Shown piece by piece: positions 7,800 to 27,707 of a stretch of 64,000 bases of DNA; position 1 is the first letter of the stretch, and the number at the start of each line of letters is the position of its first letter. The stretch lies in contig JAWKSI010000001.1 of assembly GCA_041389225.1 (NCBI GenBank), positions 51,821 through 115,820 on the forward strand, read 5' to 3'. The notes beneath the pieces were generated by a model. That model did no database searches and had not been told where the DNA came from. It saw nothing but the letters and a program-made list of their open reading frames with translations. This DNA comes from Candidatus Doudnabacteria bacterium (lineage in GTDB: Bacteria; Patescibacteriota; Doudnabacteria; UBA920). A program made the position numbers and the translations under genes.

Positions 7800-10403
7800 A
7801 TGAGCAAGCGCTCTGGACAATATAAAATTATCATGAATAACTTCGCCTTTATTTTAGAACGACTTTCAAGCCGAGCCAAAAATGCGCTCATTGCAGCACA
7901 AATGGTTTCGGAAGAACTCCACCACGATCATATCGGAACGGAGCATCTTTTGTTTGGCATTGTCGCCGAAAAAGCTTCCTTTGCCGCAGAAATTTTGATC
8001 AAATCAAAAGTCACCCCTGATGTAGTCAAACAAGAAGTTTCACTTGTTAACCAAAACAGTCAAATCGCTTCGTGGAAACCAGTTCTCTCCCCTAACCTCA
8101 AAAGTGCGATCGAAAAATCTGCGATCATTGCTAGCCAGTACGGTTATCAATTTATTGGTACCGAACATTTTTTGTACGGCCTAACTACAACGGGCAACAA
8201 CAAGTCTCGAGTAATTCTCTCTAAACTCGGAATCAACATGAACGAACTCGAACAAAATCTTATTGCTGTATTCGAAAATATTTCTAAGTTTCCAGAAATT
8301 CCAGGACAAGACAACGACCCCGAACCGACTCACGAAAACCACCCACACCCTGGTGCAATGATGCCAACCCCTGACGGTAAACGCGGCAATGTGCTCGAAC
8401 AATTTACTACAGACTTAACTCAAAAAGCAGCGCAAGGAAAAATCGACCCAGTAATTGGTCGCAAAAAAGAGATCGAACGTGTTATCAGCATCCTTGGTCG
8501 CCGAACCAAAAATAACCCAGTCCTAATTGGCGAAGCTGGAGTTGGAAAAACCGCAATCGTCGAAGGTCTTGCATTAGCAATCGCCAACCGTGAAGTTCCA
8601 GATAATTTACTCGACAAAAAAATCTTAGCTCTCGACTTAGCTTTGGTTGTTGCAGGTTCAATGTTTAGAGGAGAATTTGAGAATCGACTCAAGCAAATTA
8701 TTGATGAAGTTAAAGAAAACGAAAATGTCATCCTCTTTATTGACGAACTTCATACCATGGCTGGCGCTGGCGCTTCGCAAGGTAGTTTGGACGCGGCTAA
8801 TATTCTCAAACCTGCACTAGCCCGTGGTGAAATGCGCACTATCGGCGCCACCACAATTTCGGAATACAAAAAACATATCGAGACTGATGCTGCACTCGAA
8901 CGACGCTTTCAATCAATCTTAGTAGAAGAGCCGAGCAAAGAAGAAACTATTGCTATCCTCAAAGGTATTCGACCTAACTACGAAAAACACCATAACGTTC
9001 AGATTACTGACGAAGCTATTAATGCTGCCGTCGAACTTTCTGATCGCTACATTCAAGATCATCACCTCCCCGATAAAGCTGTTGACCTTGTCGACGAAAC
9101 TGCAGCTTTTCTTCGAAGTATTCATAGCAACTCCAAACTTGCCAAAACCAAACGCAAAGTTGAATCAGAATTAGAAACTCTCGAACAAGAAAAAACCAAA
9201 GCTGTGATGGAACAAGATTTTACAACTGCACTCCACTTGCGAAGCCAAGAAGATCGTTTACTCAAACAAAAAAAAGAACTCGATCTTTTGGCAGCCAAAG
9301 AAAAAGGTCCGGTATATTCGATTAGCGCCCAAGACATCGCCCATACCGTAAGTCTCATGACCAAAATCCCGTTACAAAAACTAGCACAGAGCGAAGTCGG
9401 AAAACTTACAAACCTCGAAAAAGTTCTCAAAACCAAAATCGTTGGTCAAGACGAATCTATTACCGAAATTGCCAAAACTATTCGCCGCAGTCGCGCTGGA
9501 TTGGCCGACCCAAATCGCCCAATCGGTTCTTTTATGTTCTTAGGTCCAACTGGAGTTGGAAAAACCGAAACCGCCAAAGCTATTGCCGCGGAAGTATTTG
9601 AAGACCCTGATGCACTAATTAGAGTCGATATGTCAGAGTTTATGGAACGCCACAATGTCGCGCGATTAATTGGCGCACCCGCTGGTTATGTTGGCTACGA
9701 AGAAGGTGGTCGCCTAACCGAAGCAGTTCGCCGTAAACCTTATGCAGTTGTCTTGTTTGACGAAATCGAAAAAGCACACCCAGAAGTATTCAATATCTTG
9801 CTTCAAATTCTTGAAGATGGTCAACTTACAGACAGCTCCGGGAAACGAGTCAACTTTACCAACACTGTGATAATTATGACTTCCAACCTTGGTATGCAAG
9901 AGCTTAATGCCCAAGCTAACAAAATTGGTTTTGCCGACAAAGAAGAAGAAACTAATCAAAAAGCCAAGCTCGAACAAGAATACGAACGCATCAAAGTCGG
10001 TCTACTAGAAAAACTCAAAAAAGATTTGCGGCCAGAATTTCTAAACCGAATCGATAAAGTTTTGATTTTTAAACCACTAGGACAAACCGAACTCAAAAAA
10101 ATTACAAGACTTCAACTCAAAGAATTATCAGAGCGTATCAAAGCTCAAGGTTCGGAACTCAAATTTGAGACACCTGTGGTCAACTTCATTACACAAAAAA
10201 GTTACGACCCGTTGCAAGGAGCGCGCTACATTCGTAAAAATATCCAAGATTTAGTCAGCGACCCATTGGCTGAAGAAATTATTTCGAATGAACTTATTCC
10301 TGGTTCAATTATCACGATTACTTTGGACCACGATGAGCAAATTCGCTTTGAACGATCTGCGAACAAAACTGCAACCAAAAAACCAGAACCAGTAGTTGCG
10401 TAA
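7800..10403 (+). CDS. clpC: ClpC-type AAA+ chaperone: Clp_N repeats, two AAA modules, a short UVR-like middle domain and an IGF-like loop
   Basis: Walker A motifs GEAGVGKTAIVEGLA and GPTGVGKTETAKAIA. The UVR-like segment is EQDFTTALHLRSQEDRL. KIGFADKEE is a ClpP-docking-loop-like segment. The shortness of the middle domain argues against ClpB. Confidence 0.9.
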   Translation: MSKRSGQYKIIMNNFAFILERLSSRAKNALIAAQMVSEELHHDHIGTEHLLFGIVAEKASFAAEILIKSKVTPDVVKQEVSLVNQNSQIASWKPVLSPNLKSAIEKSAIIASQYGYQFIGTEHFLYGLTTTGNNKSRVILSKLGINMNELEQNLIAVFENISKFPEIPGQDNDPEPTHENHPHPGAMMPTPDGKRGNVLEQFTTDLTQKAAQGKIDPVIGRKKEIERVISILGRRTKNNPVLIGEAGVGKTAIVEGLALAIANREVPDNLLDKKILALDLALVVAGSMFRGEFENRLKQIIDEVKENENVILFIDELHTMAGAGASQGSLDAANILKPALARGEMRTIGATTISEYKKHIETDAALERRFQSILVEEPSKEETIAILKGIRPNYEKHHNVQITDEAINAAVELSDRYIQDHHLPDKAVDLVDETAAFLRSIHSNSKLAKTKRKVESELETLEQEKTKAVMEQDFTTALHLRSQEDRLLKQKKELDLLAAKEKGPVYSISAQDIAHTVSLMTKIPLQKLAQSEVGKLTNLEKVLKTKIVGQDESITEIAKTIRRSRAGLADPNRPIGSFMFLGPTGVGKTETAKAIAAEVFEDPDALIRVDMSEFMERHNVARLIGAPAGYVGYEEGGRLTEAVRRKPYAVVLFDEIEKAHPEVFNILLQILEDGQLTDSSGKRVNFTNTVIIMTSNLGMQELNAQANKIGFADKEEETNQKAKLEQEYERIKVGLLEKLKKDLRPEFLNRIDKVLIFKPLGQTELKKITRLQLKELSERIKAQGSELKFETPVVNFITQKSYDPLQGARYIRKNIQDLVSDPLAEEIISNELIPGSIITITLDHDEQIRFERSANKTATKKPEPVVA

Positions 10404-11870: not shown

Positions 11871-11961
11871 GGAGAGTTGGCTGAGTGGTCGAAAGCGCCT
11901 CACTGCTAACGAGGTAGGGGTTTATAGCCTCTCAAGGGTTCGAATCCCTTACTCTCCGCCA
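11871..11961 (+). tRNA. tRNA-Ser(GCT)
   Basis: GGAGAGT acceptor stem, D-arm GCTGAGTGGTCGAAAGC, anticodon loop cTGCTAa, long variable arm, T-arm GGGTTCGAATCCC, 3' end ACTCTCCGCCA. Confidence 0.85.
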
Positions 11962-12010: not shown

Positions 12011-12040
12011 AAAACCGCCGTAAGGCGGTTTTATTTATTC
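12011..12040. terminator. bidirectional terminator (aaaaccgcc gtaa ggcggtttt)
   Basis: Hairpin flanked by A-runs and T-runs, between the tRNA and the vapC 3' end. Confidence 0.55.
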
Positions 12041-12510
12041 TATTTTAATTTTATATCTTTAGGTTTCAGTAAATTTATCCCTGGAACTATTTCGAAGTCG
12101 TCTTTACCATCCCTTGAGAGTATACTTTTAACATTATTATTTTTCATAATCACACAATGAAAAGCATCTCCCCAGCCAGGATTGTATAAATTCATATTTT
12201 CACCAACATCTGACCAAAAATCATCAAAGGTATAATTGCTGTTTTTATGTGTATCTAGGATAAAAAACTTAACATTATAGATCTTTGATGATCTTTGAAG
12301 CCTATTAATATCTGAAGCAACTTTTTTGGGCTTTATATTAAATTGATTTATTAATACTTTTGCCAGCTCAACAAAAGTAAATAATGAGGTTACAAACCTA
12401 ACACTCTCCATCCCACTTAGCACCTCAACAGCATTTTCTATTTCAGAGCTAAATTCATCTTTCATATACCATGAAACAAATATATTTGTATCTAAATATA
12501 TATCTTTCAT
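12040..12510 (-). CDS. vapC: PIN-domain protein (VapC-like toxin)
   Basis: The N-terminus MKDIYLDTNIFVSWY is typical of PIN domains (D..N, acidic residues). 156 aa. Confidence 0.7.
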   Translation of the reverse strand: MKDIYLDTNIFVSWYMKDEFSSEIENAVEVLSGMESVRFVTSLFTFVELAKVLINQFNIKPKKVASDINRLQRSSKIYNVKFFILDTHKNSNYTFDDFWSDVGENMNLYNPGWGDAFHCVIMKNNNVKSILSRDGKDDFEIVPGINLLKPKDIKLK

Positions 12511-12511
12511 T

Positions 12512-12667
12512 TTATTTCTTAGCTTTGAATTTTACTGGAACTTCAACCTTTACAGCTTTTTTAGCTTTAAATGAAACACTCTCACCATTTTTAGTTTTAA
12601 AACTAACAGTTACCGGCTTTTGGACTGTCTTGGTAGCCTTAAATTCAACAATTTTTTTGCGTGTCAT
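12512..12667 (-). CDS. unannotated 51-aa lysine-rich ORF (MTRKKIVEFKATKTVQKPVTVSFKTKNGESVSFKAKKAVKVEVPVKFKAKK), a candidate antitoxin partner of VapC
   Basis: Minus-strand translation from the ATG at 12667. Its stop overlaps the vapC start. It falls below the 60-aa cut-off of the ORF track. Confidence 0.4.
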   Translation of the reverse strand: MTRKKIVEFKATKTVQKPVTVSFKTKNGESVSFKAKKAVKVEVPVKFKAKK

Positions 12668-12676
12668 AATTCGATT

Positions 12677-13949
12677 CTACACCAATTTAAGAATCTTGTC
12701 TTCATACTTAATTTTAGATTTTAAATTAGACAATAATAATCTTTTCTCACTAATAGAGCCTTCTTTCAGCAAATATTTTGCATAATTTTTTATGTCAGCG
12801 TCTTTATTATTAGAGACACTCTTAATACCCAAGACACTGGATTGAAATTTATTAAACCTGCTTACTTCGAGCTCTAGCCTTTTCTTAATCCCCAGTTCAT
12901 CAATATCCGTATAATCAATAATTTTAGCTAACTGATCAATCAGCTCTTTTTCTCTAATATACTTGTTTTTACAAAACCTATCTTTAGCTCTAGTGCAGGA
13001 ATAATAAATGTATTTGTTTGACCCACCGTTTTTTAGCTCTTTCCATTTTTCTTCTGCTGATATTCCTGAGCCACACTTACCGCATATAAACATTTTAGTA
13101 AATGCGAATTCTTTAGATTGTCTAGAAATATTATTTCTCTTAAGTTGTTCCTGAACTTTATCAAATAACTCCTTGGTTATAATTGGCTTGTGTCTTCCTT
13201 GATAAACATTGCCGCTATTTCTTGGATATTCAAATTCTCCGTAATAAAAGGTGCTTTGAAGTATTTTGTAAACCGCCGAAAGTGTTACAGGTCTATTACC
13301 TCTTGTATAGAAGTTAAGCTCGAATCTTAACCAGTGATATAACTTTCTACCTGACCATTTTTCGTGAGCCACTTTTTCGAACATTTGTTTTATAACTAAG
13401 GCTCTCTGAGGATCCTGAATAACCACACCCTTTCTATCTGTGCGCTTTTGGTTTAGATAGCCCAAAGGTGCCATATTTGGCCAAAAACCAAGCTCTACGC
13501 GCGTCCTCAACCCTCTTTTAACATTTATACCACGATTGTCATTTTCTAGCTTAGCTTGAGACCCCAATATCATCAGCAAAAACTTTTCATTTGGATTATT
13601 AGAAAACTCTTGGCCGTATGTTCTAATTTTTTGCAATTGCCCTCCATCCATTAAATCGACAATAGATCCCAAGTCTCCAGCATTACGAGATAACCTATCA
13701 GGCGCCCAGGTGAGTATGCCGTTAAATTCTACCCTCTTTAATTTCGCTTAAGAGCTCATTAAAGACTGGTCTTTGATTAGTTTCTTTAGCAGAATGTGAT
13801 TCTTGTTTAATTGTCACAATCTCAAGCCGATCACGCTCTGCTATTTGTAGCATCTCTTTTATCTGTGAATCTATAGACATTACCTGCTTCTCGTCGCCCT
13901 CGGAGCTACCCCTTGCGTATAGACAATATCTTATCTTTATTTCTTCCAT
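12677..13949 (-). CDS. large serine recombinase: resolvase catalytic domain plus recombinase and zinc-ribbon domains, interrupted by one frameshift at about 13722-13730
   Basis: The N-terminal 75-aa ORF (YARGSS..Q) reads on in another frame as ...GILTWAPDRLSRNAGDLGSIVDLMDGGQ.... Removing one T from the attt run at the junction restores ...EGRINGILTW.... The C-terminus has Cys-rich CGKCGSG..YYSC. Confidence 0.8.
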
Positions 13950-14020
13950 ACCACATTAATGACGCACCTGCCTTTTTTAGTCTAGGTAGATAATTTAAAA
14001 ATCAGCCATTTGGCTGATTT

Positions 14021-14722
14021 TTAAGAATACTTATATTCGAGTTTCTCTTTGACTTTTTTCCAATTTGGTAGCTTCTTGTCTAAACAAGCAAAAAATAACT
14101 TATTATGCTTTCTATATTTAATATGGCATAGCTCATGGATTAAAACATAATCTATACAATCTTTAGATGCGTGAATAAGTTTTGGATTTAATGATACTTT
14201 TTTACCCTTAAGGAAACTTCCCCACCTCTTCGACATATTTCTTAGTTCTAACACCAAATCATTATTTTTCGGAAATAGCTTTTTCATCTTCTCAAACCTA
14301 TCCTCAAATACAACAACTGTTTTTTCTTTATACCACCGATCAATTAATATTTTTGTATACGAACTGTTCTTAACTGATTTACTTGTTCTCACCTCAAAGA
14401 CCCCTCTAAAGAGGCATATCGAATCAGCTTTAGCACTTTTAACTACTAATTTATATTGCCTACCTAAATATAATAAACTTTCCCCAGAAACATACTCACG
14501 TTTATATTCTTTTTTATTCACTCGATCAAAAAAGTCGAGCTGTTTATTCATCCAAAACCATTTTCGTTTTAAAAACTGTTCAACTTTATACAGGTCAATA
14601 TCCAAGGGACCTTTGACCACTATTTCTTTGCTCGGTTTAATCGTTAAAGATAAACTTTTGCGTTTTTGTTTTATTAATTGATATTGGTATTGGTAATTTC
14701 CGTATACAAATTTTTTGATCAT
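14021..14722 (-). CDS. WLM/DUF45 (YgjP-like) zinc metallopeptidase, a known companion of type I R-M operons
   Basis: HEXXH motif in DYVLIHELCHIKYRKHN. Lies immediately downstream of hsdR. Confidence 0.7.
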   Translation of the reverse strand: MIKKFVYGNYQYQYQLIKQKRKSLSLTIKPSKEIVVKGPLDIDLYKVEQFLKRKWFWMNKQLDFFDRVNKKEYKREYVSGESLLYLGRQYKLVVKSAKADSICLFRGVFEVRTSKSVKNSSYTKILIDRWYKEKTVVVFEDRFEKMKKLFPKNNDLVLELRNMSKRWGSFLKGKKVSLNPKLIHASKDCIDYVLIHELCHIKYRKHNKLFFACLDKKLPNWKKVKEKLEYKYS

Positions 14723-17700
14723 TAGATTATCTTATGGTTATTCTCTGCCAACTGCACGGCTTTTTCAATCACTTCTTTACTAGCTTCTGGGCTTAAATCC
14801 AAATCATATTCAACCCTTGCCACATCATACAAATAGTCGTCAATTTTATTCATCATCTTTCTTTTTACATCTAAATTTTTATGCCAATCCACTATACTTT
14901 CTTGTTTGATTATACCTATGATATCTAATATTACCGAGGTATAATTTTCGCCGTCTAAAGGTATTAAGTTCTGTAAATTTCTATACAGAATGTCAGCACC
15001 TTTAACAGCAGTTACTTTTTCTGGCAAGCCTTCATCTCTTTTATTTACCACTTGGTCTTCAATCAACCTTAATTGTTTTAAGGCTTCGATGTCTGCCAGT
15101 TTCTTTAATCTCATTTGATCTAAAATCTCTTGGATTTTTTGAAAAGCGATCATAAAATTCTGGATCAGACTCAACATTTTCTCTAATTGTCTTATCTGTC
15201 TGGGCCGCGATCGCTTCTGCTTTAGATTTGTCGGAACCTAGATTTTCTACTTCTTCTTGAAATGCATCTCGGTCGGTAATGTTAACTTGCTTAGTCAAAA
15301 GTTCTACCCCTTTTGCATCAACGTATTTATCCAGCACATCAATTAAAGACTGTTTGTATTCTCCTAAATCTACAGAATCACCATAAACCAAACTTGAAGC
15401 TTTTCTTAATTCCATAAATTTCTTTAGCTCTCTTTTATATAAATCAATGTGTTTAAATTCTTTTACAAAGTTTTGTAAGACGAGACATTCATTAAACTCA
15501 CGAATAAACTTATTCATAGTTTTATAAAATACATCTCTTTGCTGTTCATCCTCTAAATGTCTAATAAAAACCTCGTCATCTTTAGAACCCTTAACTTCTT
15601 TAAAAATATCGTGAAGTTCACCATATGAATGTTCCAGCGATTCTATTTTGTCATCTACATCAATTAAAGCACTCTTAACATCATCTTCATCATAATTACC
15701 AAATAGTTTCATTGCGGTATCAATATTCTTAGCATTTTCCGAATAGTCGACTATAAAACCAGCAGTTTTTGGCAAGACTTCATTTTCAAATAATCTATTG
15801 ACCCGAGCAATAGCTTGCAGTAAATTATGATCTCTTAAGTCTTTGGATAAATACAAAACTGTATTTCGTGGAGCATCAAATCCAGTAAGAAGCTTATCTA
15901 CCACTATAATAATCTCCACCCCATCTTCATTATTTTTAAAACTACTAATCACACCGTCTTCATAAGATTTTACACTAGAGTGATTAGCCCTAACTTCGCC
16001 CAAATAATCCACTACAGTCTTTTTATGGGTATTAACTTTATCTCCATCCTCATGTTCATCAGAAATCACTACAGCTGTATTGATCTTCCCACTAATTGCA
16101 AAAGCTCGCTGGAACAACACCGCAGAAAACTTTGATGGTGCTACAACCTGTGCCTTTAATCCAGTACCTTTAAAATTATCCAAAAAGTGTTTTTCTATAT
16201 CAAAAGCTATCTCTGCAATTCTCTGGGGATTGTCTTTAATAATTTTACTTCCTACATATTGCTGAATCTCTTGCTTTTGTTTGTCCGACATTCCAGCGGT
16301 AATCCGCTCGATATGTTTGTCGATCATGTCTTTATTCTGCACTAAATCGACATATCGACCCTCATAAATTAAAGGTAAAATAACTTTATCATCTAAGGCA
16401 TCATCAATTGTATACCTATCAATGTAGCTACCAAATTTTCTCCAACTTTCAGCTTCTTTTTTCATTAATGGAGTGCCTGTAAAGGCAATATAACAAGCGT
16501 TAGGAATTATCCGATTCATTTCCAAATTGGCAATCCCGGTTTGACTGCGGTGTGCTTCATCAATTAATACAAAAATATTTGAATCATTATCAACCAAGCC
16601 AGTTCGCTTTTTACTGGCTGATTCAAACTTATGCACCAAAGTAGTAATTACGTCCAAACTCTTATCTTTTATTAATCCTAATAAATGCTCGCCACTAGTG
16701 GCCTGGGTTACACCCTTTTTAAGATTACAGTTTTTAAAAGTATCTTTAATTTGTTTGTCTAAATCTTTACGATCTGTAACTACAATCACTCTTGGGTTGG
16801 TAATATTCGGATCTTCTATTAACGCTTTCACAAACATGACCATTGTTAAAGATTTACCTGACCCTTGAGTATGCCAAATTAACCCACCTTTTCTCTTACC
16901 TTCGCCATTAGCACCTTCTTCGTATTCATTAATTCGATTAAATATTTTACGGATTGCAAAATACTGTTGGTACCTGGAGATCTTTTTTATCCCAGCGTCA
17001 AAAACTATATAGTTTTTAGTTAAATCTAAAAGCCTGTCTGGTTTAAATAAAAACACCACACCTTTATCTTGTTCTGTTACCAATCTACTTGTATGTTGTG
17101 TAGTTTGTTCAGGAGATCCATTTAAATCTTTAACCAACTGATTATATACTTTTGGTTCAATTTGCCTTTGCATTACAGACAAAACCTCAGATTCTACTTC
17201 TTCTACACTTAAGCCTTTTTCCTTCCATGCGCTATAAAACTTATTAGGTGTTCCCGTGGTACCATATCTTAAGTCCTTACCATTAGTGCCAACTAATAGT
17301 TGAGCATATGTAAATAACTTAGGGCAATAATCTGCTCCCTGGTTGCGATTTTGTTGCGAGAAAGCCTTGTCTACATCTACGCTAGATTTTTTGTTTTCTA
17401 TTACTGCGAAGGGTATTCCGTTTACAAAACAAACAATGTCTGGGCGAATCTTTTGCTTTCCTTGGGCTTCAAATTCTACAGATACATGGTAGTCATTATT
17501 ATCTGGATTTTTAAAATCTATAAATCTAAAATTCTTAGAAACCTTTTTACCATCGTGATGCACGACTATTGTTTTCCCACCAGCCGTCGGCATAATAGTG
17601 TTAAACACTTCTTGTGAACTATCTATTAAGCCTTTGTATTCTAAATTCTCTAATTCATCAATTGCATCCCTAACATCCTTTTCTCCAAACTTATAGTTTT

Positions 17701-17896
17701 TACCATCTACTTCGTAACTATTAAGCTCCATTAGTTTTTTAGATGCAATATCGTGCAGCAAAAAAGTGCTTGAGTCATTTCCACGCAGCTGCATTATTTC
17801 TTCTCGAGAAATATATTTATATCCAAGATTAATCAATAACTCTACAAAAGGTAATTGTGATTGCCTGGCTTCATCAAAATGTACTTGTTCTAACAT
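14722..17896 (-). CDS. hsdR: Type I restriction enzyme R subunit HsdR, roughly 1060 aa if one frameshift at the A6 run (about 15160-15166) is corrected
   Basis: N-terminal HsdR nuclease region, SF2 helicase motifs (HTQGSGKSLT, FVLIDEAHRSQ) and a C-terminal domain carried by the 151-aa ORF. Reading A6 as A5 gives the continuous ...DPEFYDRFSKIQEILDQMRLKK.... Confidence 0.9.
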
Positions 17897-17998
17897 AATT
17901 TAGTAATTTAATTCCTATAAATAAGTGGGTTTTTATATTTGACATAAACATGATTTATGCTATAATACCTACATCAATACGAAAAGGGATCCGAACGG

Positions 17999-18544
17999 TT
18001 AATTACCTAAGGAGCCCTTTTCTTTTTGCATGATTTTACTTTTAATACTAGGATTTTCTAGTTGATCAAAATATTCTGCGCCAATTTTTTTATATAAAGA
18101 GGAAGCGTATTTTTTATTTGGAAATAATACCTTTAAAAACCTATTTTCGGATATCAAAAAATCAACGAGCATTTTATAGTCGCCATCGCCAGACACTAAG
18201 ACAACTTTATCAAAGTCATCTTTTTTATACATCTTTTTCATAATAGAAAAAATAATATCACAATCCACATTTCCTTTTTTATTTCCCAGCATTGCAGAAT
18301 TATGTTCTCTAAAGACTAAAACAAAACCGGCTTCTTGTATATCTGTATATAAATCTTGATAGTCTTCGTTAAGCCACCCTAAAAAATAATATGCAGTTTT
18401 AACCTTATATTTATTTGCCAAGTATACCCGAAATTTCTCCAAGTCTACTTTCCAAGGACTTATTTCATGCTTAGTGGTGCCCATAAATAAATTTTGCCCA
18501 TCAATATAGGCTAAATTATTTGGTTGTGATTGATAGTCATTCAT
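17999..18544 (-). CDS. NYN (LabA-like, PIN-superfamily) nuclease-domain protein
   Basis: AYIDGQNLF...DCDIIFSIM...VVLVSGDGDYKMLVDFL matches the NYN pattern (IDG.NL...D......VLVSGD.DF). Lies between hsdS and hsdR. Confidence 0.7.
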   Translation of the reverse strand: MNDYQSQPNNLAYIDGQNLFMGTTKHEISPWKVDLEKFRVYLANKYKVKTAYYFLGWLNEDYQDLYTDIQEAGFVLVFREHNSAMLGNKKGNVDCDIIFSIMKKMYKKDDFDKVVLVSGDGDYKMLVDFLISENRFLKVLFPNKKYASSLYKKIGAEYFDQLENPSIKSKIMQKEKGSLGN

Positions 18545-18552
18545 ATAAGATA

Positions 18553-19731
18553 CTACTTTACTTTTTCTAATAAGTCTTCTGGGGTTCTAATCTTCCCAGT
18601 AACTAAATTGTTTAATAAATATTTTTTCTGTTCTTGCCAGAGGGTAAGTTTTTTCTGGAGAGCGGCGATCTCATCATCAGCAGAGGTGAGAATATCAGCG
18701 ATTGCTTTTTGTTCCCTTAGTTCTGGAACACTATATTTAATAGACAGAAGTTCTGACTTATTCAACTTTGCTCTTGTTCCTCCGTTCAAATACATCAAAA
18801 CATTTTTATGCACCGTTGAATAAAAAAGGAAATCTTGAGAATTTTTTTCATTCGCTTTAATAACATGCGCATGATTGTTAACCCATGATTTCCCATATAC
18901 ACGATAAGCGATTGGTCGATTTTGATATTCATCAAATTGACCTCCATCTTCTGCAACCAGAATAATATCTTCATCAAAAAGATAATCATTTACATAATCA
19001 ACGATATTATTTGCACCGCAGTATGGAATAATGCCTTGCATTCTCGATCTTTCGTCAGAGTTTAATGGAACTCTCTTTGCGTCTAAACAAATAGCAATAT
19101 CTTTAAGTTTTACCTCTTTCCACTCGTCACTAAACCCAGGTAAACGTTTTTTGCCTGTGAGGAGTTGTTGCATCAAACCCTTTTTGATATTTTTCTTTAA
19201 AGCAATTTTCTTTTTAAGTTTTTCAATAGCCTCATCCCATGTTTCGAGAACAGTAGCGATACGGTTTTGTTCAAGGAGAGGGGGAAATTTCATGGGGCAA
19301 GAAAGTATGTCATCTTTTCGTAAGTTTGTTTGATTTACCCCATCATCAAAAGAAAGGAAGTAGCGATTTCTGCTTAGAGCAAGATATAAGAACTTCCTTG
19401 ATACCCCCTTTGCCCTAAATCCTCCAATTCTTTGATTTAGAGTATAAGTATTGTCTTTATTGACATAAAAACACTTTGCTATAGCTTTCCCATTTGGGAC
19501 ATCACTCATTACCATTGCAATGTCTCCTTTTTTTAAAGGGACCAAAAACTTATTTGAGTATTTTTTTATTTTTCCATTAGATGAAATAAATTTTGAATTC
19601 ACAACTACATAATTTCCGTTTTCATCAATATCTTTTTCATGCCCTTTTCCATTGAAAAAGTCTACTACTTCTCTGAGTTGTTTTTTTACCCACCCATTAG
19701 GAATATTTTGTTGTTTATTTCTGGTCTTCAT
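18553..19731 (-). CDS. hsdS: Type I restriction-modification specificity subunit HsdS (two target-recognition domains)
   Basis: 392 aa. The central and C-terminal conserved coiled regions (LLEQNRIATVLE.., LREQKAIADILTSADDEI) are typical of HsdS. Confidence 0.8.
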   Translation of the reverse strand: MKTRNKQQNIPNGWVKKQLREVVDFFNGKGHEKDIDENGNYVVVNSKFISSNGKIKKYSNKFLVPLKKGDIAMVMSDVPNGKAIAKCFYVNKDNTYTLNQRIGGFRAKGVSRKFLYLALSRNRYFLSFDDGVNQTNLRKDDILSCPMKFPPLLEQNRIATVLETWDEAIEKLKKKIALKKNIKKGLMQQLLTGKKRLPGFSDEWKEVKLKDIAICLDAKRVPLNSDERSRMQGIIPYCGANNIVDYVNDYLFDEDIILVAEDGGQFDEYQNRPIAYRVYGKSWVNNHAHVIKANEKNSQDFLFYSTVHKNVLMYLNGGTRAKLNKSELLSIKYSVPELREQKAIADILTSADDEIAALQKKLTLWQEQKKYLLNNLVTGKIRTPEDLLEKVK

Positions 19732-20208
19732 TTAATTTCTTTTTGATTGAATTCCTTGTTCAACCACAGCTTCTATATTTCTCGCAATCCAGTTATATGC
19801 ATCAGACCCTGCGTCATACACAGAAATATATTCTGATAAATTTTTGCCATTCTTTAAGCCGATTTTTATAAACGGGTTAATGCCCTTGGAACATGTTCCT
19901 GTTCGTGGGTCCCTGAGATTATGAATGTATATTCCGACCAATCCTTTTTTACTATTCCATGCTTTTTCTATTTCATACTTTACCCACTTGCTTTTATGAG
20001 TCTCCGCTCCAATCAAAACAACAACACAAGAAGATTTTTCTATGTTTTCGTCAATCCACCGACGTATCGCCGCATCTCCACCTCTTTTAATTTCTTCCCA
20101 TCTATTTGGGGTGACGGGTTTATTAGCTTCAATAACACCTATGTTTCTAATTTGTTGTACTCTCATTACATCATTACGAAAATGAAAGCTGTAAAATATA
20201 TTCCTCAT
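19732..20208 (-). CDS. ThsB-like TIR-domain protein (DUF1863 / MTH538 TIR-like family), 158 aa
   Basis: NIFYSFHFRNDVMRVQQIRN...NRWEEIKRGGDAAIRRWIDENIEKSSCVVVLIGAETHKSKWVKYEIEKA...GLVGIYIHNLRD...SKGINPF aligns motif-by-motif with Thoeris ThsB-type proteins (VFFSFHY.D...RV..VRN, VLIG..T..R.WV.YEI.K, IGIHI...KD, KG.NPF). The gene is wedged between hsdM and hsdS, and its stop abuts the hsdS start. Confidence 0.75.
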   Translation of the reverse strand: MRNIFYSFHFRNDVMRVQQIRNIGVIEANKPVTPNRWEEIKRGGDAAIRRWIDENIEKSSCVVVLIGAETHKSKWVKYEIEKAWNSKKGLVGIYIHNLRDPRTGTCSKGINPFIKIGLKNGKNLSEYISVYDAGSDAYNWIARNIEAVVEQGIQSKRN

Positions 20209-20214
20209 AATTAA

Positions 20215-20612
20215 AATATACTAATTAATATTACTAATAAAATAGTGGGTATATAAAATAACTTTAAGGTATTGGACCACATGCAATACAAAATAGCAGT
20301 GTCACGCAATGAATTAAATTTAGAAACAGACATTGAATAATCTATAAGTGCTTCATCTTTGATATTTCTAACTTCATCATATAAATGCCTGTATTTGCGC
20401 TCTAAAGATAAAAATAAGCATCATGAATCCAAAATATCATGATTACCAAAATCAATATAATCTGCAATTCATTTCTACAAATTCTAAAAATGCTGCTGCT
20501 AACGCCACAACTAGTGTTATCATCCATCCTCTCAGGGTGAATAGATTATTTCCCATGCGAGAAATAACCTCTTGAATCATTTGCAAATGTGCAATCTTTT
20601 TGTTATCCGACA
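20215..20612 (-). pseudogene. small membrane protein gene (about 165 aa, two predicted TM segments) broken into three frames
   Basis: Minus-strand ATG at 20612 gives MSDNKKIAHLQMIQEVISRMGNNLFTLRGWMITLVVALAAAFLEFVEM. The reading continues in the other two frames as NELQIILILVIMIFWIHDAYFYL and ERKYRHLYDEVRNIKDEALIDYSMSVSKFNSLRDTAILYCMWSNTLKLFYIPTILLVILISIF. It lies directly upstream of the TIR gene. Confidence 0.4.
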
Positions 20613-20626
20613 TATTAATTTTTGAC

Positions 20627-22129
20627 TATTTAATACTCATAGCCTTTAAGTATTTTTTCATCTGTTCTTCAAGCTCTTTCAATTCTGGCTCAAGCTTCGA
20701 CAACTCCTGTAGTTTTGCTCCAATATCTACTGGTCTTCTTCAAGATATCGACATATCTTGTAATATTTAGATTAAAATCATTTTCTTTAATCTCTTTAAA
20801 CTTAACCACACGAGCAAACTTCTCGACATCTTTACGATCTTTGTAGCTTTTAAAGATTTTATCTATGTTTTCTTCGGTTAAAGTATTTTGAGCTTTCCCA
20901 GATTTATACTCTTTAGACGCCTCGATAAACATGACATCTTTTTTGCTCTCATTCTCTGCCCCTGCCTCACGAGATCTGTCTATCACCAAAATAGCTACAG
21001 GAATACCGGTAGTAGAGAATAGTCCTGCAGGCAGGCCAATAACAGCATCAATCAAGTTTTCTTCTAGTAACTGCTTTCTAATTTTCCCTTCAGCGCCACC
21101 TCTAAATAACACACCATGAGGCACTATAATAGCTCCACGACCTGTTTTAGGTTTTAAGGTTTCTACCATATGGCTGATAAAAGCATAGTCACCTTTGTCT
21201 TTAGGTGGCACTCCACGGTGAAAACGGTTAAATGGATCACCTTCGGCATTTTCGGCTCCCCATTTTTTTAGACTAAAAGGAGGATTAGCTACTGCAACAT
21301 CAAATTTAATTAATTTACCATTTTCTACTAGCAGTGGATTATTTAAAGTATCACCCCACTCAAGTCGGGCAGAGTCTTTGCCATGCAAGAACATGTTCAT
21401 ACGAGCTAGCTGGTAAGTAGAACCCGTGGATTCTTGTCCATATAAAGCGTAATCGTTTGACCCTTGAGATTCTACTTCTTCTCCTGCTAACAAAAGTAAA
21501 CCACCTGAGCCAACAGCGAAATCACAAATACGATCTCCAGGTTTTGGTTGAGCAAGTTTGGCCACCAATTTTGCAACATTCCTAACAGTAAAAAATTCTC
21601 CTGCCTTTTTTCCTGCGTCTGCACCAAATCGCTCGATCATATACATATAAGATTCGCCGAGAACATCCTCACCAACTTCAGACAAATCAATCTTATTAAA
21701 ATCCTGCATCAAGTGCCTGATCATTTTATTACGTTGATCAAGCTTGCCTAAGATTGACTCATTATTAAAGTCTACAGAAAAAATTCCTTCGAGCTTATCA
21801 CGATTCTCTTCTTCTATTTTATGAAGAGCTTTATTAATCTCTTCACCAATATTGTCAGATTCTATCTTTTCGTATAAAGCATCAAATGTAGCTTCTTCTG
21901 GAATATAAAAACGATCGAGTTTCATCTTTTCTTCGACACGCTTCTTATCACCCTGGTAACGCTCTACATACTCAGCCCTTTTTATTTTAGAAATGTCACT
22001 GACATATTTAAAGAAAAGCATTACTAATACATAATCTTTATACACTCCAGCATCAACAGATGTCCTAGAAGAATCCGCTGCCTGCCAAAGCACTTTATTT
22101 AATTCTGGTTGTGTTATTTTTTTAGACAT
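20627..22129 (-). CDS. hsdM: Type I R-M N6-adenine DNA methyltransferase HsdM. The annotated stop at 20690 is probably a 1-nt indel, and the reading continues to 20627 as ...ELEPELKELEEQMKKYLKAMSIK.
   Basis: N-terminal HsdM domain and NPPF motif (VAVANPPFSLKKW). A typical coiled C-terminus is recovered after a 1-nt correction near 20695. Confidence 0.9.
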
Positions 22130-22709
22130 TATTTTGTAGTTTAAGAAAAATGGTCTTTAGTATATCGCGTTTTAGCTGCTTTTGTTTGTCGTGGAGGTTT
22201 ATCTGCTTAATAACATTATTATACAAATCAACTATAGTTTTTTGTTGTTCTAGACTAGGTAATAAGATAGAAGTTTCACCTAAGACAGATTTAGATATGT
22301 GCATAATAGTACTTCCTCTGGCTTTTTGCATTATTTCTGATTGAAAAGCAGGTGAGTTTAAGTAAAAATTTAAGTACTCAGGATTAACCTTTTTGTCTTT
22401 GATTCTAATAATATACAAAGAGGAGTTTGCCATTGATTTTTGTTCGCTTTGAACCAGGGAAGATCTAAATTCTTTCCCGGGAGTACTGCGGGACAACATT
22501 AGAATATCATTCTGGTGTATCACTGCTGGAGACCTGGCTGGTAAACTTTCTAGCTTAGGTAAATTACTCAGCTCCGATATCTTGGTATTGCTTACAATGT
22601 CAGATGCTTGCACCACTGGATATTGGCCGTTTTCAGAGTAGTCCTTAATATAGATTGCTGCCCCAGATATAATATCGACAAGATCTTTTAACATAATATT
22701 TGAACTCAT
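22122..22709 (-). CDS. hsdS: half-size HsdS (single target-recognition domain), overlapping the hsdM start
   Basis: 195 aa. It has a TRD-like region and the conserved C-terminal helix (LEQQKTIVDLYNNVIKQINLHDKQKQLKRDIL). Confidence 0.6.
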   Translation of the reverse strand: MSSNIMLKDLVDIISGAAIYIKDYSENGQYPVVQASDIVSNTKISELSNLPKLESLPARSPAVIHQNDILMLSRSTPGKEFRSSLVQSEQKSMANSSLYIIRIKDKKVNPEYLNFYLNSPAFQSEIMQKARGSTIMHISKSVLGETSILLPSLEQQKTIVDLYNNVIKQINLHDKQKQLKRDILKTIFLKLQNNV

Positions 22710-22739
22710 ACAGACATTATACTAAGTTATAATTTTCTG

Positions 22740-23153
22740 TCAAATATTTTGATTATTTTTCTTAATCCCTGCAGCTTTAGCAATAATATCTGCCAAAGTA
22801 TGGGCTTCTTTTAGGTTTTCTGGGATTTCTTGTTCTTTTGAATAGACAATTCTAATGGTCTTATCACTACTATCTTTACTCGAGTAATGTTTATTATTAT
22901 GCTTTAATGCAAATTTTATTAAATCGCTCTTCCCTTCCTGTATCCCTTGTATCAGAGCATTTTCTGCAATATCCCCAATATTTTCTTTACCCTCTTTAAT
23001 TGCTTTATTAGTTTGAGCGGTAAACCGTTTACTAGATTTCCTTAATCTGTAATAGCTTGCCTTGCTGAATCCAGTCTTTTTACAGGAATACAAAACATTG
23101 CCAGTTTTTTCTAGCTCAGTTAAGAATCTTTGTTTTTGATCTTTAGAAATCAT
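22740..23153 (-). CDS. hypothetical protein with an N-terminal HTH (KKTGFSKASYYRLRK)
   Basis: ORF with an HTH-like motif. Its stop overlaps the start of the upstream methyltransferase. Confidence 0.4.
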   Translation of the reverse strand: MISKDQKQRFLTELEKTGNVLYSCKKTGFSKASYYRLRKSSKRFTAQTNKAIKEGKENIGDIAENALIQGIQEGKSDLIKFALKHNNKHYSSKDSSDKTIRIVYSKEQEIPENLKEAHTLADIIAKAAGIKKNNQNI

Positions 23154-23905
23154 TTTGTAAGAGATTGGTATCTATCGATAATTACTTGGCAGTAATTTAA
23201 GTCTATTTCAAAAGCAATACATTTCCTGCGTGTTTGCTCGCATGCAAGTAAAGTTGACCCAGAACCTGCAAACAAATCCAGTACTGTATCACCTATATTA
23301 CTACTATTTAAAATCATCTCTCTTAAAAGCGGTAGGGGCTTCATCGTTGGATGAAGTTTGCTTTTCTGCGGTTTTGGATAAAACAAAGCTGATTTACTTT
23401 TGGATTTATAAAATTTATGCCTGCCGTGCCAGCCGTAATAGATGAGTTAGTGCTGTGGTAAATAATCGAGTCGTCCTATCACTGGCTTATTTTTTACCCA
23501 GACAAGCATTTGCCCAAGTTTAATCTGTACTTTATCGCAAGCTTTCTTTAATGCAAAAATTAACTTATCTGAATTAAAAATATATATTGAATTATGTTCT
23601 GCAAAATATGGCGCAATGTTTTGCAGCCACCCAACAGAAAACTCCTTATAACTCTCTTCTGACTGCACTTCATCTCCAATTATTTCTGTATCATTACTTA
23701 ATTCTGCAAACTTGTATTTACTTTTTGTATAATCTACGCCGTAAGGCGGATCGGTGAGTAATAAATTAATTTTCTTTCCTGTTAATGCCTGATCCACCAA
23801 GTCTTTATCACGGCTATCACCGCAAACAAGAATATGACTACCAAGTTCGACTATACTGCCGTACTTAATTAAGTTTTTTGGCTTTTTGTCCTGTAAGTTC
23901 TTCAT
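23150..23905 (-). pseudogene. ParB-associated N6/N4 DNA methyltransferase (second copy) interrupted by an in-frame TAA at 23447-23449
   Basis: LLLTDPPYGV motif in the N-terminal part. HPTMKPLPLL and FAGSGST motifs in the C-terminal part. The two ORFs are in the same frame: ...DYLPQH*LIYYGWHGRHKFY.... Confidence 0.7.
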
Positions 23906-25129
23906 ATCTATTGATAATTAATTGTGTAAAGATAGGTGATTGCTCAATTACAAAAGCCTTTCGCTTTAATTGCTCGCAAGCAAGAAGCTCACTACCACTG
24001 CCTCCGAAACCGATAAAAATATTGTCTCCGGGTTTACTACGCCTCAGTAGTGGTCGTTCAAATAAAGACACGGGCTTCTGGGTTGGGTGCTCATAACTGC
24101 CCTGCGATTCTTTCGTCAACCAAATATCAATCATATCTTCAATGTTAGAAATGGTAGCATTACCAGTTCCAACATTGGATTTAATATCTCGTGGAAGTTT
24201 TTATGTTTATCAGATAAATATGGCTTCCCAAGAGTTCCATAAATTACTGGCTCATAGCACTTATTAAATCCAGATTTTGGAGTACAGTTGATCCCATTTT
24301 TGATCCAGACGCAAGTCCGCTTATAACTAATGCCTAGATTTTTATATATTGTTTGAACCAATCCTACGTTCCGCTGATCATTCCATATAAATATGTGAAC
24401 GTCGGGTTTTGTAATTTTAAGGCTAGTAGATATAGCTTTAGTTAAGAACTTCTCGTACTCATCACTCGACAAGTTATCGTTAAAATGTCCTCCATACTGA
24501 GATTTCCCAGATATTCCTTTATCATAATCCATGCAGATTCCATATGGCGGGTCACTAAGAATCATATCCATCTTTTCTCCGTTAGTTACTTTTAAAACAT
24601 CTGTTTCTTCAGTGCTGTCGCCGCAAAGTAGATAGTGATTTCCAAGTTTGAATAAATCCCCAGTTTTTATCTTTGTGTGTTTTGCCTGCTCTTCTTGCTG
24701 GGGCTTAATATCTAAATCTTCAAGAGAAATTTGGTTATCCCAAATATCACTTAACTCATTTTGACCAAACCCTATATCGAGCAACAAGTCTAAATCAAAT
24801 TCCTTCAAAAGCTCGTTGTTCCATGACCCAGTATTCTGGTTACTTCTAAGCAAATATTCTTCAAGCTCTGTTTTGTTCAGAAGACGACTTGGTACACGAA
24901 CTTCTATTTCTTCATCTGTTCTGCCAAGTAGCTTTAATATTTTGAGCCTTTGATGACCACTAATTACTGTGCCATCAAGATTAATAGCAATAAGCTCTAC
25001 ATAGTTAAACCGTTTAAAACTTTCAGTTAAGTGCTCTTTTTGAGTTTCGGACAAAGTCCTTGGATTTTTGTCGTAAGGAATTAAATCCTTAACTAGTCTT
25101 TTTTGCGTAGACCAAACTAAATTTTTCAT
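23865..25129 (-). CDS. ParB-like nuclease domain fused to an N6/N4 DNA methyltransferase, split by a frameshift at an A5 run (about 24196-24200)
   Basis: N-terminal ParB-like region (LIPYDKNPRTLSE), MTase motifs ILSDPPYGI, EHPTQKPV and FIGFGGSGS. Reading A5 as A6 gives the continuous ...DKHKKLPRDIKSNVGTGNATISNIEDMIDIWL.... Confidence 0.75.
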
Positions 25130-26109
25130 AGTATTGCTTTTTAATTGTCTAGTATAATTTCAGCAGACATATTAGCGTTACCTCAAAAGGAGTTTAGAAA
25201 ATAAAAAACTGCTTTTTTAAAAGCAGCTTTGTTTGTTATCCACTCCGAATAATTACAGCTCCGGAGTTTTATTTAAATTTAAAGTTATACGAACTATTTA
25301 TTCTATAACCAAGACCGGGTTGAGATTCAACTAAATTAATAGTAGTATCTAATTCTCTACGCACCTTTTTATTAATATTGCTATACCTTTTCTAAAGGCC
25401 TTCGCTTGAAGCATACGATCCAGGTGCTACTATTAATTGTTCTGAAGTTCTATATTTTATATCTTCAGATAAAGCTTTCAAAGCCATTACGCCCTTATTA
25501 GTTAAATTTATTTGCTTATCATTACCTAAATGTAGTGTCCTTGACCGTATATCTAAGAAAATAGATTTTTGATTTATTACACGCCACTATTCTGTTGCTC
25601 AAAAGTTCGATAATTCTTTGATTTTGTTTTGTATTTATAATCTATGCTTCTTGTCTACTAGATTCGTTTAAGCGTGTAGTAATATTTTTTAAAGGTTTAA
25701 CAATATGACTAAAATCGGTAATTCGTCTTAAACTCTGAGAAAGCTCATTAATTGAATTTAAAAACGGCAAGTTAAAATCAGATTTTCTCACCTCGCTCTA
25801 TTCGTTTACTTATAGATTTTTATTTTCAAGCTTTACTTTCATACTATAATTATACCGTAAAATTAAACTTAAAATCATGGAAATTAGCCAAAAAACCATA
25901 GATAGACTTCATAAATATTTCTTAAAAACCTATGGGGTGGATATGACAGAAGAAGAAACGAGAGAATCAGCTGAAAGTCTAATAGGGGCTTTTTCTCTAC
26001 TAATAGAGATGGATCAAAAGGAAAACCAAAAGCAACAAATGAATAGTAATCAAAATAACAAATAACTGTTATAATGATATAAAATTACTTAATTTTATTA
26101 AAAAATCCT

Positions 26110-26729
26110 ATGAAAAATGAAATAGAAGCAACTTTTCTATCGGTAGACAAAGATGATATGAGAGAAAAGTTTAAAGTAACGGCTATACCCTAAAAACTCC
26201 AGAGTATATGATGCGACGAAAGACTTTTGATTTCTCCAAAGTCTCCCCTGGTAAAAATAAATGGGGTCGAGTTAGAACAGAATCGGATAAAACTACAATG
26301 ACAATTAAAGAAATTACTGGTGACGGTGTAAATGATACCTATGAAGTAGAATTAGTGGTTAACGATTTTGATACTGCCACAGAATTCTTTGAAGCATGTA
26401 ACATTCACCCTAAATCTTTTCAAGAAAATATGAGAGAAGTCTGGGTTAAAGATAATATCGAAGCTACCATAGATATGGCCAGGTCTAAATCCTTTTGTTG
26501 AATTTAGAGACCATAGATGAATCAGCTCAAAACAGCAAGTAAAGAACTTGAGTTTAATTATGATGAGGCTCTATTTGGTAGTATTGATTTAGTATATGAA
26601 AAAGAACTGGAATTCCAGCTGCGGAAATTATCAAACTCCCAGAAATTACATTCGACAAAGTCCCTCAAAAATAAAAAAACGAGCCGTGGAAATAAATTCC
26701 GCGGCTCTTTAGTTTGTAATTTGAATTAA
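26110..26729 (+). pseudogene. CYTH-like (class IV adenylate cyclase / triphosphate tunnel family) gene fragmented into about 3 pieces
   Basis: The N-terminus MKNEIEATFLSVDKDDMREKFKV carries the CYTH EIE..F signature. It continues in the 26208..26501 ORF after a stop/frameshift, and possibly in 26517..26729. Confidence 0.4.
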
Positions 26730-26757
26730 AGTGTCCTTAATTGGTGGGTATTTATAC

Positions 26758-27705
26758 TCACCAGGCTCTTCCATGCACCATCCCTCCACATTTGTCCAGA
26801 GCCCTGCAATTGAAATTGCAGAATGGTGTCACCGTTAACCGAAGAGAGGTCTTAGATAAAAGCCTTTTGACCTCAATTTCTCCGATTTGACCCTGCAAAG
26901 CAGTCTTTAAACTGTCAGGTTTGCCGAAATGAGTTGGAAGGAAGAAACCAATATCCCTTCTTAAATAACAGAAGTATAAATTTAAGTATGGGTCAACCCT
27001 AGCGTAATCACCAAAACCCTCCTCACAAACTTCTGTATACTGACAAGTCGAGCAAGGATGGTTTGAGCGATCCAGTTTGTCACCAAGCTTTACCTCGACT
27101 AAGCCCCCGCCCAGTAAATGGAACCTTAACCTTTTTCTTCCCAATTGCTTTCTTACCCTTTCAATCTCTATCGTTCTTGGCAAGACCATATTTTTAACAA
27201 CTGGTCGCCAATCTTGATAATGAGGTTTTATGGGTTTGGTCACTTTCAGGGGTCCATAACAAAGTGAACAGTTTAAGGCGACACTTATACTCTTCCAAAA
27301 GATAACTGTTCTGGAATGTCAGAAGTATAACCTTTTAGCAAAACTCGGTTAAAATCAATTTTAATACCCAGATTCAGGGCTTTTTTTACCCCAGATATAA
27401 ATTGATCGTAGTCTCCATGACCACCAGAAATCTCTTTGAAGACTATTGGATTAGTCGAATGCCAACTAGTCCGTATAAAGGACAAGCCTGCGACGGAAAG
27501 CTGTTTTCAAATCCGCCTAACAATTGTCCGTTAGTAGTCATTGAAACTTTAAACCCTTTATCAACCAAACAGTGAACAACATCATTGATTCGATACTTGC
27601 CATCCCTCCACAATAGCGGTTCAAGAGCACCGATTTCCAAGTTTCGATTCCCCCTATACTAATCCACTCATCAGCGATACTCAAGATGTTACCAAATGAC
27701 AGTGG
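26758..27705 (-). pseudogene. radical-SAM-like enzyme remnants (at least 3 frame-broken pieces). The canonical CxxxCxxC region is missing.
   Basis: Motif EPLLWRDGKYRINDVVHCLVDKGFKVSMTTNGQLL. Cys-rich C-terminal fragment (CSTCQYTEVCEEGFG..., FCNFNCRALDKCGG). Confidence 0.45.
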
Positions 27706-27707
27706 TT

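Follow-up and report, generated by a model that had tools for sequence, protein, structure and literature searches.

Does a Type I restriction-modification (R-M) operon that carries genes for a TIR protein, a small membrane protein and a NYN-domain nuclease between its subunit genes encode a single guarded suicide device, or has it gathered separate pieces of cargo? The question is raised by a locus of Candidatus Doudnabacteria (contig JAWKSI010000001.1), which we studied within a 64-kb stretch of DNA, hereafter the window, whose numbering is used throughout. An earlier, sequence-only reading had likened it to the E. coli prr locus and proposed that the passengers form a hitherto undescribed TIR+NYN cassette held silent by the restriction complex. 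Our analysis instead favors, as the probable account, a Type I R-M operon on a genomic island next to a tRNA-Ser gene, with two independent embedded modules, namely a type V Thoeris-like TIR/membrane-protein pair and a NYN gene with a predicted antisense RNA, whose linkage to the R-M genes would let all of these be transferred and expressed together; in this genome the system is probably largely inactivated.

Examination of the open reading frames (ORFs) of the window recovers eight of them in the order, at the coordinates and on the minus strand that the sequence-only reading had given, and profile searches of the window proteins against Pfam and PADLOC uphold its domain calls. Together with the associated regulatory signals, the features of the locus are as follows, from the 5' end of the operon (aa, amino acids; TRD, target-recognition domain):

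22716..22743, minus strand: sigma-70 promoter, TTGACA-16-TATAAT, 12/12 match to consensus, immediately 5' of hsdS-half
22122..22709, minus strand: hsdS-half, single TRD, 195 aa (Pfam Methylase_S 1.6e-16)
20690..22129, minus strand: hsdM, 479-aa ORF (N6_Mtase 1.4e-96, HsdM_N 2.6e-23)
20211..20613, minus strand: membrane-protein pseudogene (PDC-M50A; ThsF-like effector) with two 1-nt deletions
19732..20208, minus strand: ThsB-type TIR, 158 aa, intact (ThsB_TIR 1.3e-27; PADLOC ThsB 2.4e-64, PDC-M50B 3.6e-57)
18553..19731, minus strand: full-length hsdS, two TRDs, 392 aa (Methylase_S 1.1e-44, in two stretches)
17999..18544, minus strand: NYN/LabA-like PIN-fold RNase, 181 aa, intact (Pfam NYN 1.4e-15)
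17982..18021, both strands: hairpin across the NYN stop codon, bordered on both strands by A and U runs; predicted to be a bidirectional terminator
17939..17966, plus strand: convergent extended -10 promoter, TTGACA-16-TGcTATAAT, pointing back into the NYN 3' end
14722..17896, minus strand: hsdR, as a 945-aa ORF (17896..15059) and a 151-aa C-terminal piece (15177..14722)
14021..14722, minus strand: YgjP-like (DUF45) zinc metallopeptidase with HExxH (Pfam YgjP-like 2.1e-46)

The core of this operon, hsdS-half, hsdM, hsdS, hsdR and the YgjP-like peptidase gene, has the full domain complement of a Type I system: HsdM_N and N6_Mtase in HsdM, two TRDs in HsdS, and a nuclease N-terminus with a superfamily 2 motor in HsdR (HSDR_N, SWI2_SNF2, ResIII, T1R_D3-like, with T1RH-like_C on the second piece); the frames of the three subunits are not all intact, hsdM having lost 5 nt and hsdR 2 nt. 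The junctions are as tight as had been described, with an 8-nt overlap between hsdS-half and hsdM and a TIR stop directly adjoining the hsdS start, except that the gap between hsdS and NYN is 8 nt rather than 9; further, the hsdR stop is overlapped by the start of the peptidase gene. The sigma-70 site is one of just three perfect ones in the window and is likely the operon promoter. Thus, the earlier proposal of co-transcription stands for the passengers, which lie inside one operon behind this promoter, but it has to be qualified for hsdR: the hairpin with its U-tract and the convergent promoter after NYN imply that hsdR is not simply co-transcribed with the other genes.

The TIR protein is of the ThsB type. 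Its Glu79 (motif WVKYEI) is invariant across 36 sequences and aligns with E85 of B. cereus ThsB, which we take to be the catalytic glutamate of that enzyme. A profile of the TIR family recovers PDB entries 8WCF (2.6e-67) and, for ThsB, 6LHY/9B7D (1e-24); the first is the solved structure of a close homologue of 160 aa, titled 'Molecular chaperone Tir', on which a literature search returned nothing directly relevant. The adjacent gene had been described as a fragmented gene for a protein with two transmembrane segments. The fragmentation is borne out, whereas the number of segments is not: the intact orthologues have three hydrophobic helices, folded in an AlphaFold2 model (predicted local distance difference test score 90.8) into a long hairpin of helices followed by a C-terminal helix, and conserved Arg, Asp and Glu residues lie at the membrane edge. 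Intact versions are found in several of the comparison loci, which we denote by L numbers (L001, L003, L013-L016, L182), and in the window the surviving 53-aa N-terminal ORF (20613..20452) still matches PDC-M50A at 8e-14. Against Pfam and NCBIfam no family scored above threshold for this protein, DUF3278, DUF2270 and 8xMP being marginal at most. In several loci (L013, L014, L039 and others) a single membrane/effector gene is accompanied by two or three TIR paralogues; hence, the pair displays the one-effector, several-sensor architecture typical of Thoeris.

Both passenger genes match PDC-M50 (models PDC-M50A and PDC-M50B), a candidate in PADLOC which, according to its source, is a two-gene cassette from a 'guilt-by-embedding' screen of BREX, DISARM and Type I R-M systems and is listed there as an untested candidate (Payne et al., bioRxiv 10.1101/2024.01.29.577857); a literature search for PDC-M50 by name returned nothing directly relevant. 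A second name comes from a 2025 preprint (bioRxiv 10.64898/2025.12.03.692087), which defines type V Thoeris as a ThsB TIR with ThsF, an effector with three membrane helices, reports that one such system responds to 3'cADPR, and shows that the type protects when cloned as two genes, the validated systems being from Bacillus. Table S1 of the same preprint lists TIRs of the window's sequence family as 'DUF2270 - Type V'. One of these, 2518998441, is 100% identical to the TIR of L087 (Salinimonas chungwhensis), whose only partner is a 147-aa homologue of the window-family membrane protein (hhalign probability 99.3%, E 7e-21). Pfam DUF2270 (PF10028) itself matches 3/18 members of the membrane-protein family below threshold (12-15 bits vs a cutoff of 25) and has no match at all in the L087 partner; hence, the type V assignment rests on the labelling of the preprint and on homology to one listed system. 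With a ThsB-type TIR retaining the catalytic glutamate and belonging to the same family as listed type V members, we classify the pair with type V Thoeris and PDC-M50, and by analogy it would work like them, although it falls short of the DUF2270 definition and its PDC-M50A/ThsF-family neighbor in the window, while present, carries two frameshifts. Enterobacterial plasmid TIRs of ~50% identity were considered as a guide to the membrane partner and set aside, being paired with a patatin-like effector of another Thoeris type. These plasmid loci of E. coli and Pantoea (L178, L179) are multi-TIR islands with a patatin-like phospholipase annotated as an effector of CBASS, the signaling against phages that is based on cyclic oligonucleotides, and the window's TIR family is thus joined to another type of effector.

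How firmly, then, is the pair tied to restriction genes? The order hsdS-half, hsdM, membrane gene, TIR, hsdS, hsdR, YgjP recurs in L001/L002 (TIR 86% identical), L003 (78%) and L014 (76%). The pair also occupies the space between hsdM and hsdS in L013, L015, L016 and L182/L183, with TIRs 68-78% identical; the Type I family of these operons is another one, in which HsdM is MerR-fused. The contrast in conservation is marked: HsdR identity to the window falls from 63-79% in the one hsd family to 30-34% in the other, while that of the TIR stays at 68-86%. In all, 8/11 known contexts of TIRs at least 66% identical to that of the window lie in this position, across two divergent hsd families; the three exceptions (66-72% identical) stand beside an EcoRI-like methylase in two cases and beside a MORC-type ATPase and a Dcm methylase in the third. 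Over a wider survey of 80 genome loci from many phyla, with TIRs of 52-78% identity, a membrane-protein neighbor is detectable on either side in 41; four loci share the hsdM-hsdS position, four more (L039, L047, L083, L084) are inside a Type I operon or next to one, and for about 70 no Type I gene is present at a distance of up to 10 kb. The pair is also found alone on plasmids.

Two inter-gene junctions of the operon family serve as cargo slots: slot 1 from hsdM to hsdS, and slot 2 from hsdS to hsdR, the position of PrrC. Besides the TIR/membrane pair, slot 1 holds a further TIR in L013 and L014, a Bro-N gene in L003, a PemK toxin in L182, and an ABC ATPase with a 130-aa gene in L015. In the latter locus, a 52-aa chimeric ORF (9432-9590) fuses the N-terminus of hsdS (MKNNTTQKNIPSGWKLKKLSNVLDYERPDAY) to the C-terminus of hsdM (KKVGGYLKELKY) and looks like a recombination scar from cargo insertion at the hsdM-hsdS junction; the first ~14 residues of HsdS (MKT..QQNIP.GW) are common to both hsd families. 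Slot 2 is empty in L001, L013, L014 and L182, where hsdS and hsdR abut, and is otherwise occupied by a 75-aa gene (L003), a 227-aa gene (L015), a 73-aa gene plus NYN (L136), NYN (L149 and the window) or a 729-aa AAA_13 protein of the PrrC/RloC ATPase family (L016, 5940-8129, 2.6e-83). The L016 operon combines the classical prr-type slot with the Thoeris TIR/membrane pair. The 73- to 75-aa protein stands alone in L003 (11690-11917) and upstream of NYN in L136 (1533-1754); it has no match in Pfam and is marked by the motif Y.YG.D.I...FKD.S.Y.Y ... LAD.GDGLN.FI..NKP.

The NYN gene has a quite different distribution. Its product scores 58.5 bits against a Pfam gathering cutoff of 24.2 and keeps the acidic motifs DxxN, DxD and SGDGD (IDGQN, NVDCD, SGDGDY) in alignment to PDB 2QIP; thus, both the TIR and the NYN hold up as profile-backed domains with catalytic residues. 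Its 2966 homologues are almost all from Patescibacteria, with members 65-75% identical across many candidate phyla, and adjoin genes as unrelated as those for glyoxalase/TspO, type IV secretion and a HAD hydrolase; no conserved neighbor gene or conserved upstream region was found among them. After dereplication, 43 clusters had 3 kb or more of flanking sequence, and in five of them NYN is near R-M genes: L136 (hsdS, 73-aa gene, NYN, hsdR), the L133 group, in which it separates mod from res in a Type III system, two beside MmeI-type enzymes, and one after an N6 methylase. Counting Type I loci alone, the tally is one of the 43, plus L149 (hsdS then NYN on a short contig) and the window, far from near-exclusive embedding in R-M systems. 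In L138 (3095-9232; also L133, L134, L137, L155, L162) the NYN gene between mod (N6_N4_Mtase) and res (ResIII) is accompanied by two unannotated small genes. The recurrence in hsd loci that the sequence-only reading had named as a check for all three passengers applies to the TIR/membrane pair and fails for NYN, with 38/43 clusters away from R-M genes; nor can an undescribed TIR+NYN cassette be maintained, with NYN absent from all eight other hsd loci that have the TIR pair, and with the pair already filed as PDC-M50/type V Thoeris. L136, apart from the window the one well-resolved hsd locus with NYN, has no TIR directly upstream of hsdS, where its contig is cut off. Since the other TIR-bearing hsd loci lack NYN and L136 has no TIR before hsdS, we regard NYN and the TIR pair as independent cargo.

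What travels with NYN is not a gene but an element at its 3' end. The hairpin over the stop codon (minimum free energy -18.7/-19.3 kcal/mol, z -4.6/-4.4) occurs once in the window, and 5/12 pairs of its consensus over 50 loci show compensatory changes. Beyond it, the motif CCGTTCGGATCCCTTTTCG lies 3' of the NYN stop in 71/82 loci; in an alignment of 50 unique loci the TTGA of the -35 box and the T, A and final T of the -10 box are 90-100% conserved, while the spacer and flanks are free to vary, the hallmark of a genuine promoter. The combined promoter/hairpin element follows NYN in about 60 unique loci whatever the genomic context (e.g., L136 2266-2350). From the convergent promoter and the hairpin/terminator we predict an antisense RNA of ~55 nt, from about 17973 to 18028 on the plus strand, fully complementary to the 3' end of the NYN mRNA. 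At the sequence level, the arrangement has the components of a type I toxin-antitoxin (TA) system, i.e., a cis-encoded antisense gene with its own promoter and terminator that overlaps the mRNA. Rfam recovered only tRNA at its gathering threshold, with just noise at E up to 1 around the element, and a literature search for NYN with type I TA found no description. In orthologues that lack NYN, hsdS and hsdR abut; with the NYN module inserted, they are separated by a terminator-like hairpin and an antisense promoter as well.

Taken together, we advance the following plausible mechanism. The TIR, as in type V Thoeris, would sense infection and make a signal derived from ADP-ribose, upon which the membrane protein would oligomerize and breach the membrane, thereby aborting the infection. 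Separately, the NYN RNase might be held in check by the antisense RNA from its own 3' element, in the manner of a type I TA toxin. Both modules would travel and be expressed with the R-M genes; embedding would thus amount to linkage ('guilt-by-embedding'), and a single TIR+NYN machine is not required.

In this genome, the machinery probably exists largely as a relic, as judged from four lesions. Aligned with L001 and L014, hsdM lacks 5 nt at 20735/34; this deletion shifts the frame and deprives the protein (504 aa in intact orthologues) of its C-terminal tail, whose coding sequence can still be followed out of frame as far as about 20626. DNA alignment to intact orthologues of 133 to 140 aa places the two 1-nt deletions of the membrane gene at 20479/78 and 20412/11, and a 2-nt deletion in hsdR at 15141/40 is evident both from DNA alignment and from a frame switch in tblastn with the 1055-aa HsdR of L001. 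The TIR, hsdS, NYN and peptidase genes are intact. UGA recoding is common in some lineages of the candidate phyla radiation (CPR), and an alternative code was considered for the split genes and ruled out: the breaks are true indels relative to orthologues, and TAA, TAG and TGA all end long ORFs (stop usage TAA 30, TAG 10, TGA 8), so the genome uses the standard code and recoding does not explain the fragmentation. Might the locus rather be intact and active, hsdM, the membrane gene and hsdR being frameshifted by assembly or consensus errors of a metagenome-assembled genome? Both membrane-gene deletions take a base from a short homopolymer (a GG reduced to G, and a T run), and the island may vary among strains, which lowers consensus quality. 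However, neither the 5-nt nor the 2-nt lesion is a typical homopolymer error, the neighbors on the island (serine recombinase, two methylases) are split too, and broken genes are confined to about 12.6-28 kb of the window, with the long genes of the remaining ~48 kb unbroken; hence, we hold this explanation to be unlikely and a decaying island to be the probable one.

An alternative closer to the original proposal is that HsdMSR binds the TIR/membrane pair, NYN or both and keeps them silent until a phage anti-restriction protein disables the enzyme and thereby releases them, and infection is aborted. PrrC itself is the precedent; NYN sits in the exact prrC position, L016 has its PrrC/RloC-family protein in the same slot, and the overlapping and abutting genes fit coupled expression. 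The fidelity of the closest TIR clade to the hsdM-hsdS junction points the same way. Against such cross-talk with the restriction enzyme stand the pairs 66-72% identical that occur beside an EcoRI-like methylase or a MORC ATPase with Dcm, the bulk of the more distant pairs, about 70/80, that have no Type I gene nearby, the pairs found alone on plasmids, and the protection conferred by type V Thoeris as a cloned two-gene system; NYN, for its part, mostly lies outside R-M loci, occurs inside a Type III system as well and carries its own regulatory element. We consequently rate a PrrC-like guard as distinctly unlikely. It is still less probable that the passengers have no defensive role, NYN being an ordinary RNA-processing enzyme of Patescibacteria and the TIR/membrane pair a selfish addiction module kept by its linkage to R-M. 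The ~3000 NYN homologues at 65-75% identity over many candidate phyla, the want of a conserved neighbor gene and the 5/43 clusters near R-M genes would suit an enzyme of this kind, as would HEC-09, a related embedded NYN candidate that is reported to have given no defense when tested (bioRxiv 10.1101/2024.01.29.577857). Yet NYN is found between the subunits of Type I (window, L136, L149) and Type III (L133 group) systems and beside MmeI-type enzymes, its convergent antisense promoter is of a kind typical for toxic genes under tight control, and the TIR family includes experimentally validated defense systems. Several points weigh against the two-module, linkage-based account that we prefer. 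The membrane protein misses the DUF2270 threshold, its best score being 15 bits against 25; the antisense RNA is predicted only, and the 5' arm of its hairpin is also protein-coding, limiting the covariation evidence; two of the four lesions, lying in short homopolymers, could be assembly errors; and the presence of 8/11 close TIRs at exactly the hsdM-hsdS junction in two hsd families could reflect functional coupling and not mere linkage.

A bolder extension of the two-module account, which we offer tentatively as possible though on balance doubtful, is that NYN is the toxin of a new CPR-wide type I TA-like module, with the ~55-nt antisense RNA and a shared terminator, that inserts repeatedly between R-M subunit genes (hsdS-hsdR in Type I, mod-res in Type III), where its terminator and antisense promoter would also decouple the methylase genes from the restriction subunit; alongside this, one type V Thoeris clade would have specialized to the hsdM-hsdS junction, moving between unrelated hsd families.

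The setting of the operon and its remaining genes deserve brief description. NCBI proteins 100% identical to the TIR and to NYN belong to a metagenome-assembled Doudnabacteria genome, in keeping with the stated origin of the window. The hsd island (~12040-28000) begins right after tRNA-Ser(GCT) at 11871-11961; a search for an att-like repeat of the 3' end of this tRNA gene gave a second tRNA-Ser gene as the sole match. The island also carries a PIN-domain gene with a 51-aa partner (12040-12667), a large serine recombinase gene split in two (13949..12677) and two tandem N6_N4 DNA methylase genes, both fragmented (25129..23150). Within the operon family, the YgjP-like gene is found 3' of hsdR also in L001, L003, L014, L015, L016 and L039, and a literature search on DUF45 with Type I R-M yielded nothing directly relevant. 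The half-size, single-TRD hsdS that overlaps the hsdM start is likewise kept in L001, L003 and L014; as it accompanies a full-length hsdS downstream, the family may encode two specificities.

Neither PDC-M50 nor type V Thoeris is new, nor is the embedding of defense cassettes in Type I R-M operons. What appears to be new is threefold: the operon family has a two-slot anatomy, one Thoeris clade stays at the hsdM-hsdS junction even where the hsd families are divergent, and a conserved antisense-RNA element is attached to NYN genes. Second-line defenses inside restriction operons are a recognized route to new immune systems, and this locus provides a clear example from the little-studied Patescibacteria: one operon family with two defined slots and exchangeable contents, encompassing TIR/ThsF, extra TIRs, PemK, an ABC ATPase, Bro-N, an AAA_13 protein and NYN. 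The fidelity to slot 1 across hsd families whose motor subunits are only ~30% identical makes a possible functional coupling between Type I R-M and TIR signaling directly testable. The NYN antisense element, if real, would extend the short list of type I TA systems with non-peptide toxins by one whose toxin is a nuclease, and would open a way into a gene that thousands of CPR genomes contain.

Finally, the locus may be set against the known systems that it most resembles. With the prr locus of E. coli (EcoprrI hsdMSR plus the PrrC anticodon nuclease) it shares a second-line effector gene within a Type I hsd operon, placed in the window, as in prr, between hsdS and hsdR. However, in the Pfam search no passenger of the window has the AAA_13-like ABC-ATPase and anticodon-nuclease domains, the AAA_13 protein being found in L016 only; moreover, PrrC is reported to be almost exclusively embedded in R-M systems (bioRxiv 10.1101/2024.01.29.577857), whereas NYN is mostly not. 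In the case of PDC-M50, both genes match the models, but the A gene of the window copy is broken, and the steady hsdM-hsdS position across two hsd families found here is not met with in the accessible part of Payne et al. The likeness to type V Thoeris lies in a ThsB-family TIR with a catalytic glutamate, a small three-helix membrane partner and one effector with at least one TIR; the differences are the sub-threshold DUF2270 scores of the effector family, the Bacillus provenance of the validated systems, and the 3'cADPR signal and membrane pore, which for the window clade are suggested by analogy.

HEC-09, the NYN candidate embedded in Hma systems, is comparable as an NYN/PIN-like RNase within a defense operon, but its PADLOC match to the window protein is weak (3e-05) and covers residues 92-154 only; it has an additional N-terminal domain, and an antisense RNA is not reported for it. 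The predicted antisense arrangement of NYN has its nearest counterparts among type I TA systems. In txpA/RatA and bsrG/SR4 the pairs overlap at their 3' ends, and SymE/SymR has a nuclease-like toxin. Here again, a convergent antisense gene overlaps the 3' end of the toxin candidate and shares a bidirectional terminator with it; that candidate, however, recognized from its sequence, is an NYN RNase of 181 aa and not a small hydrophobic peptide.

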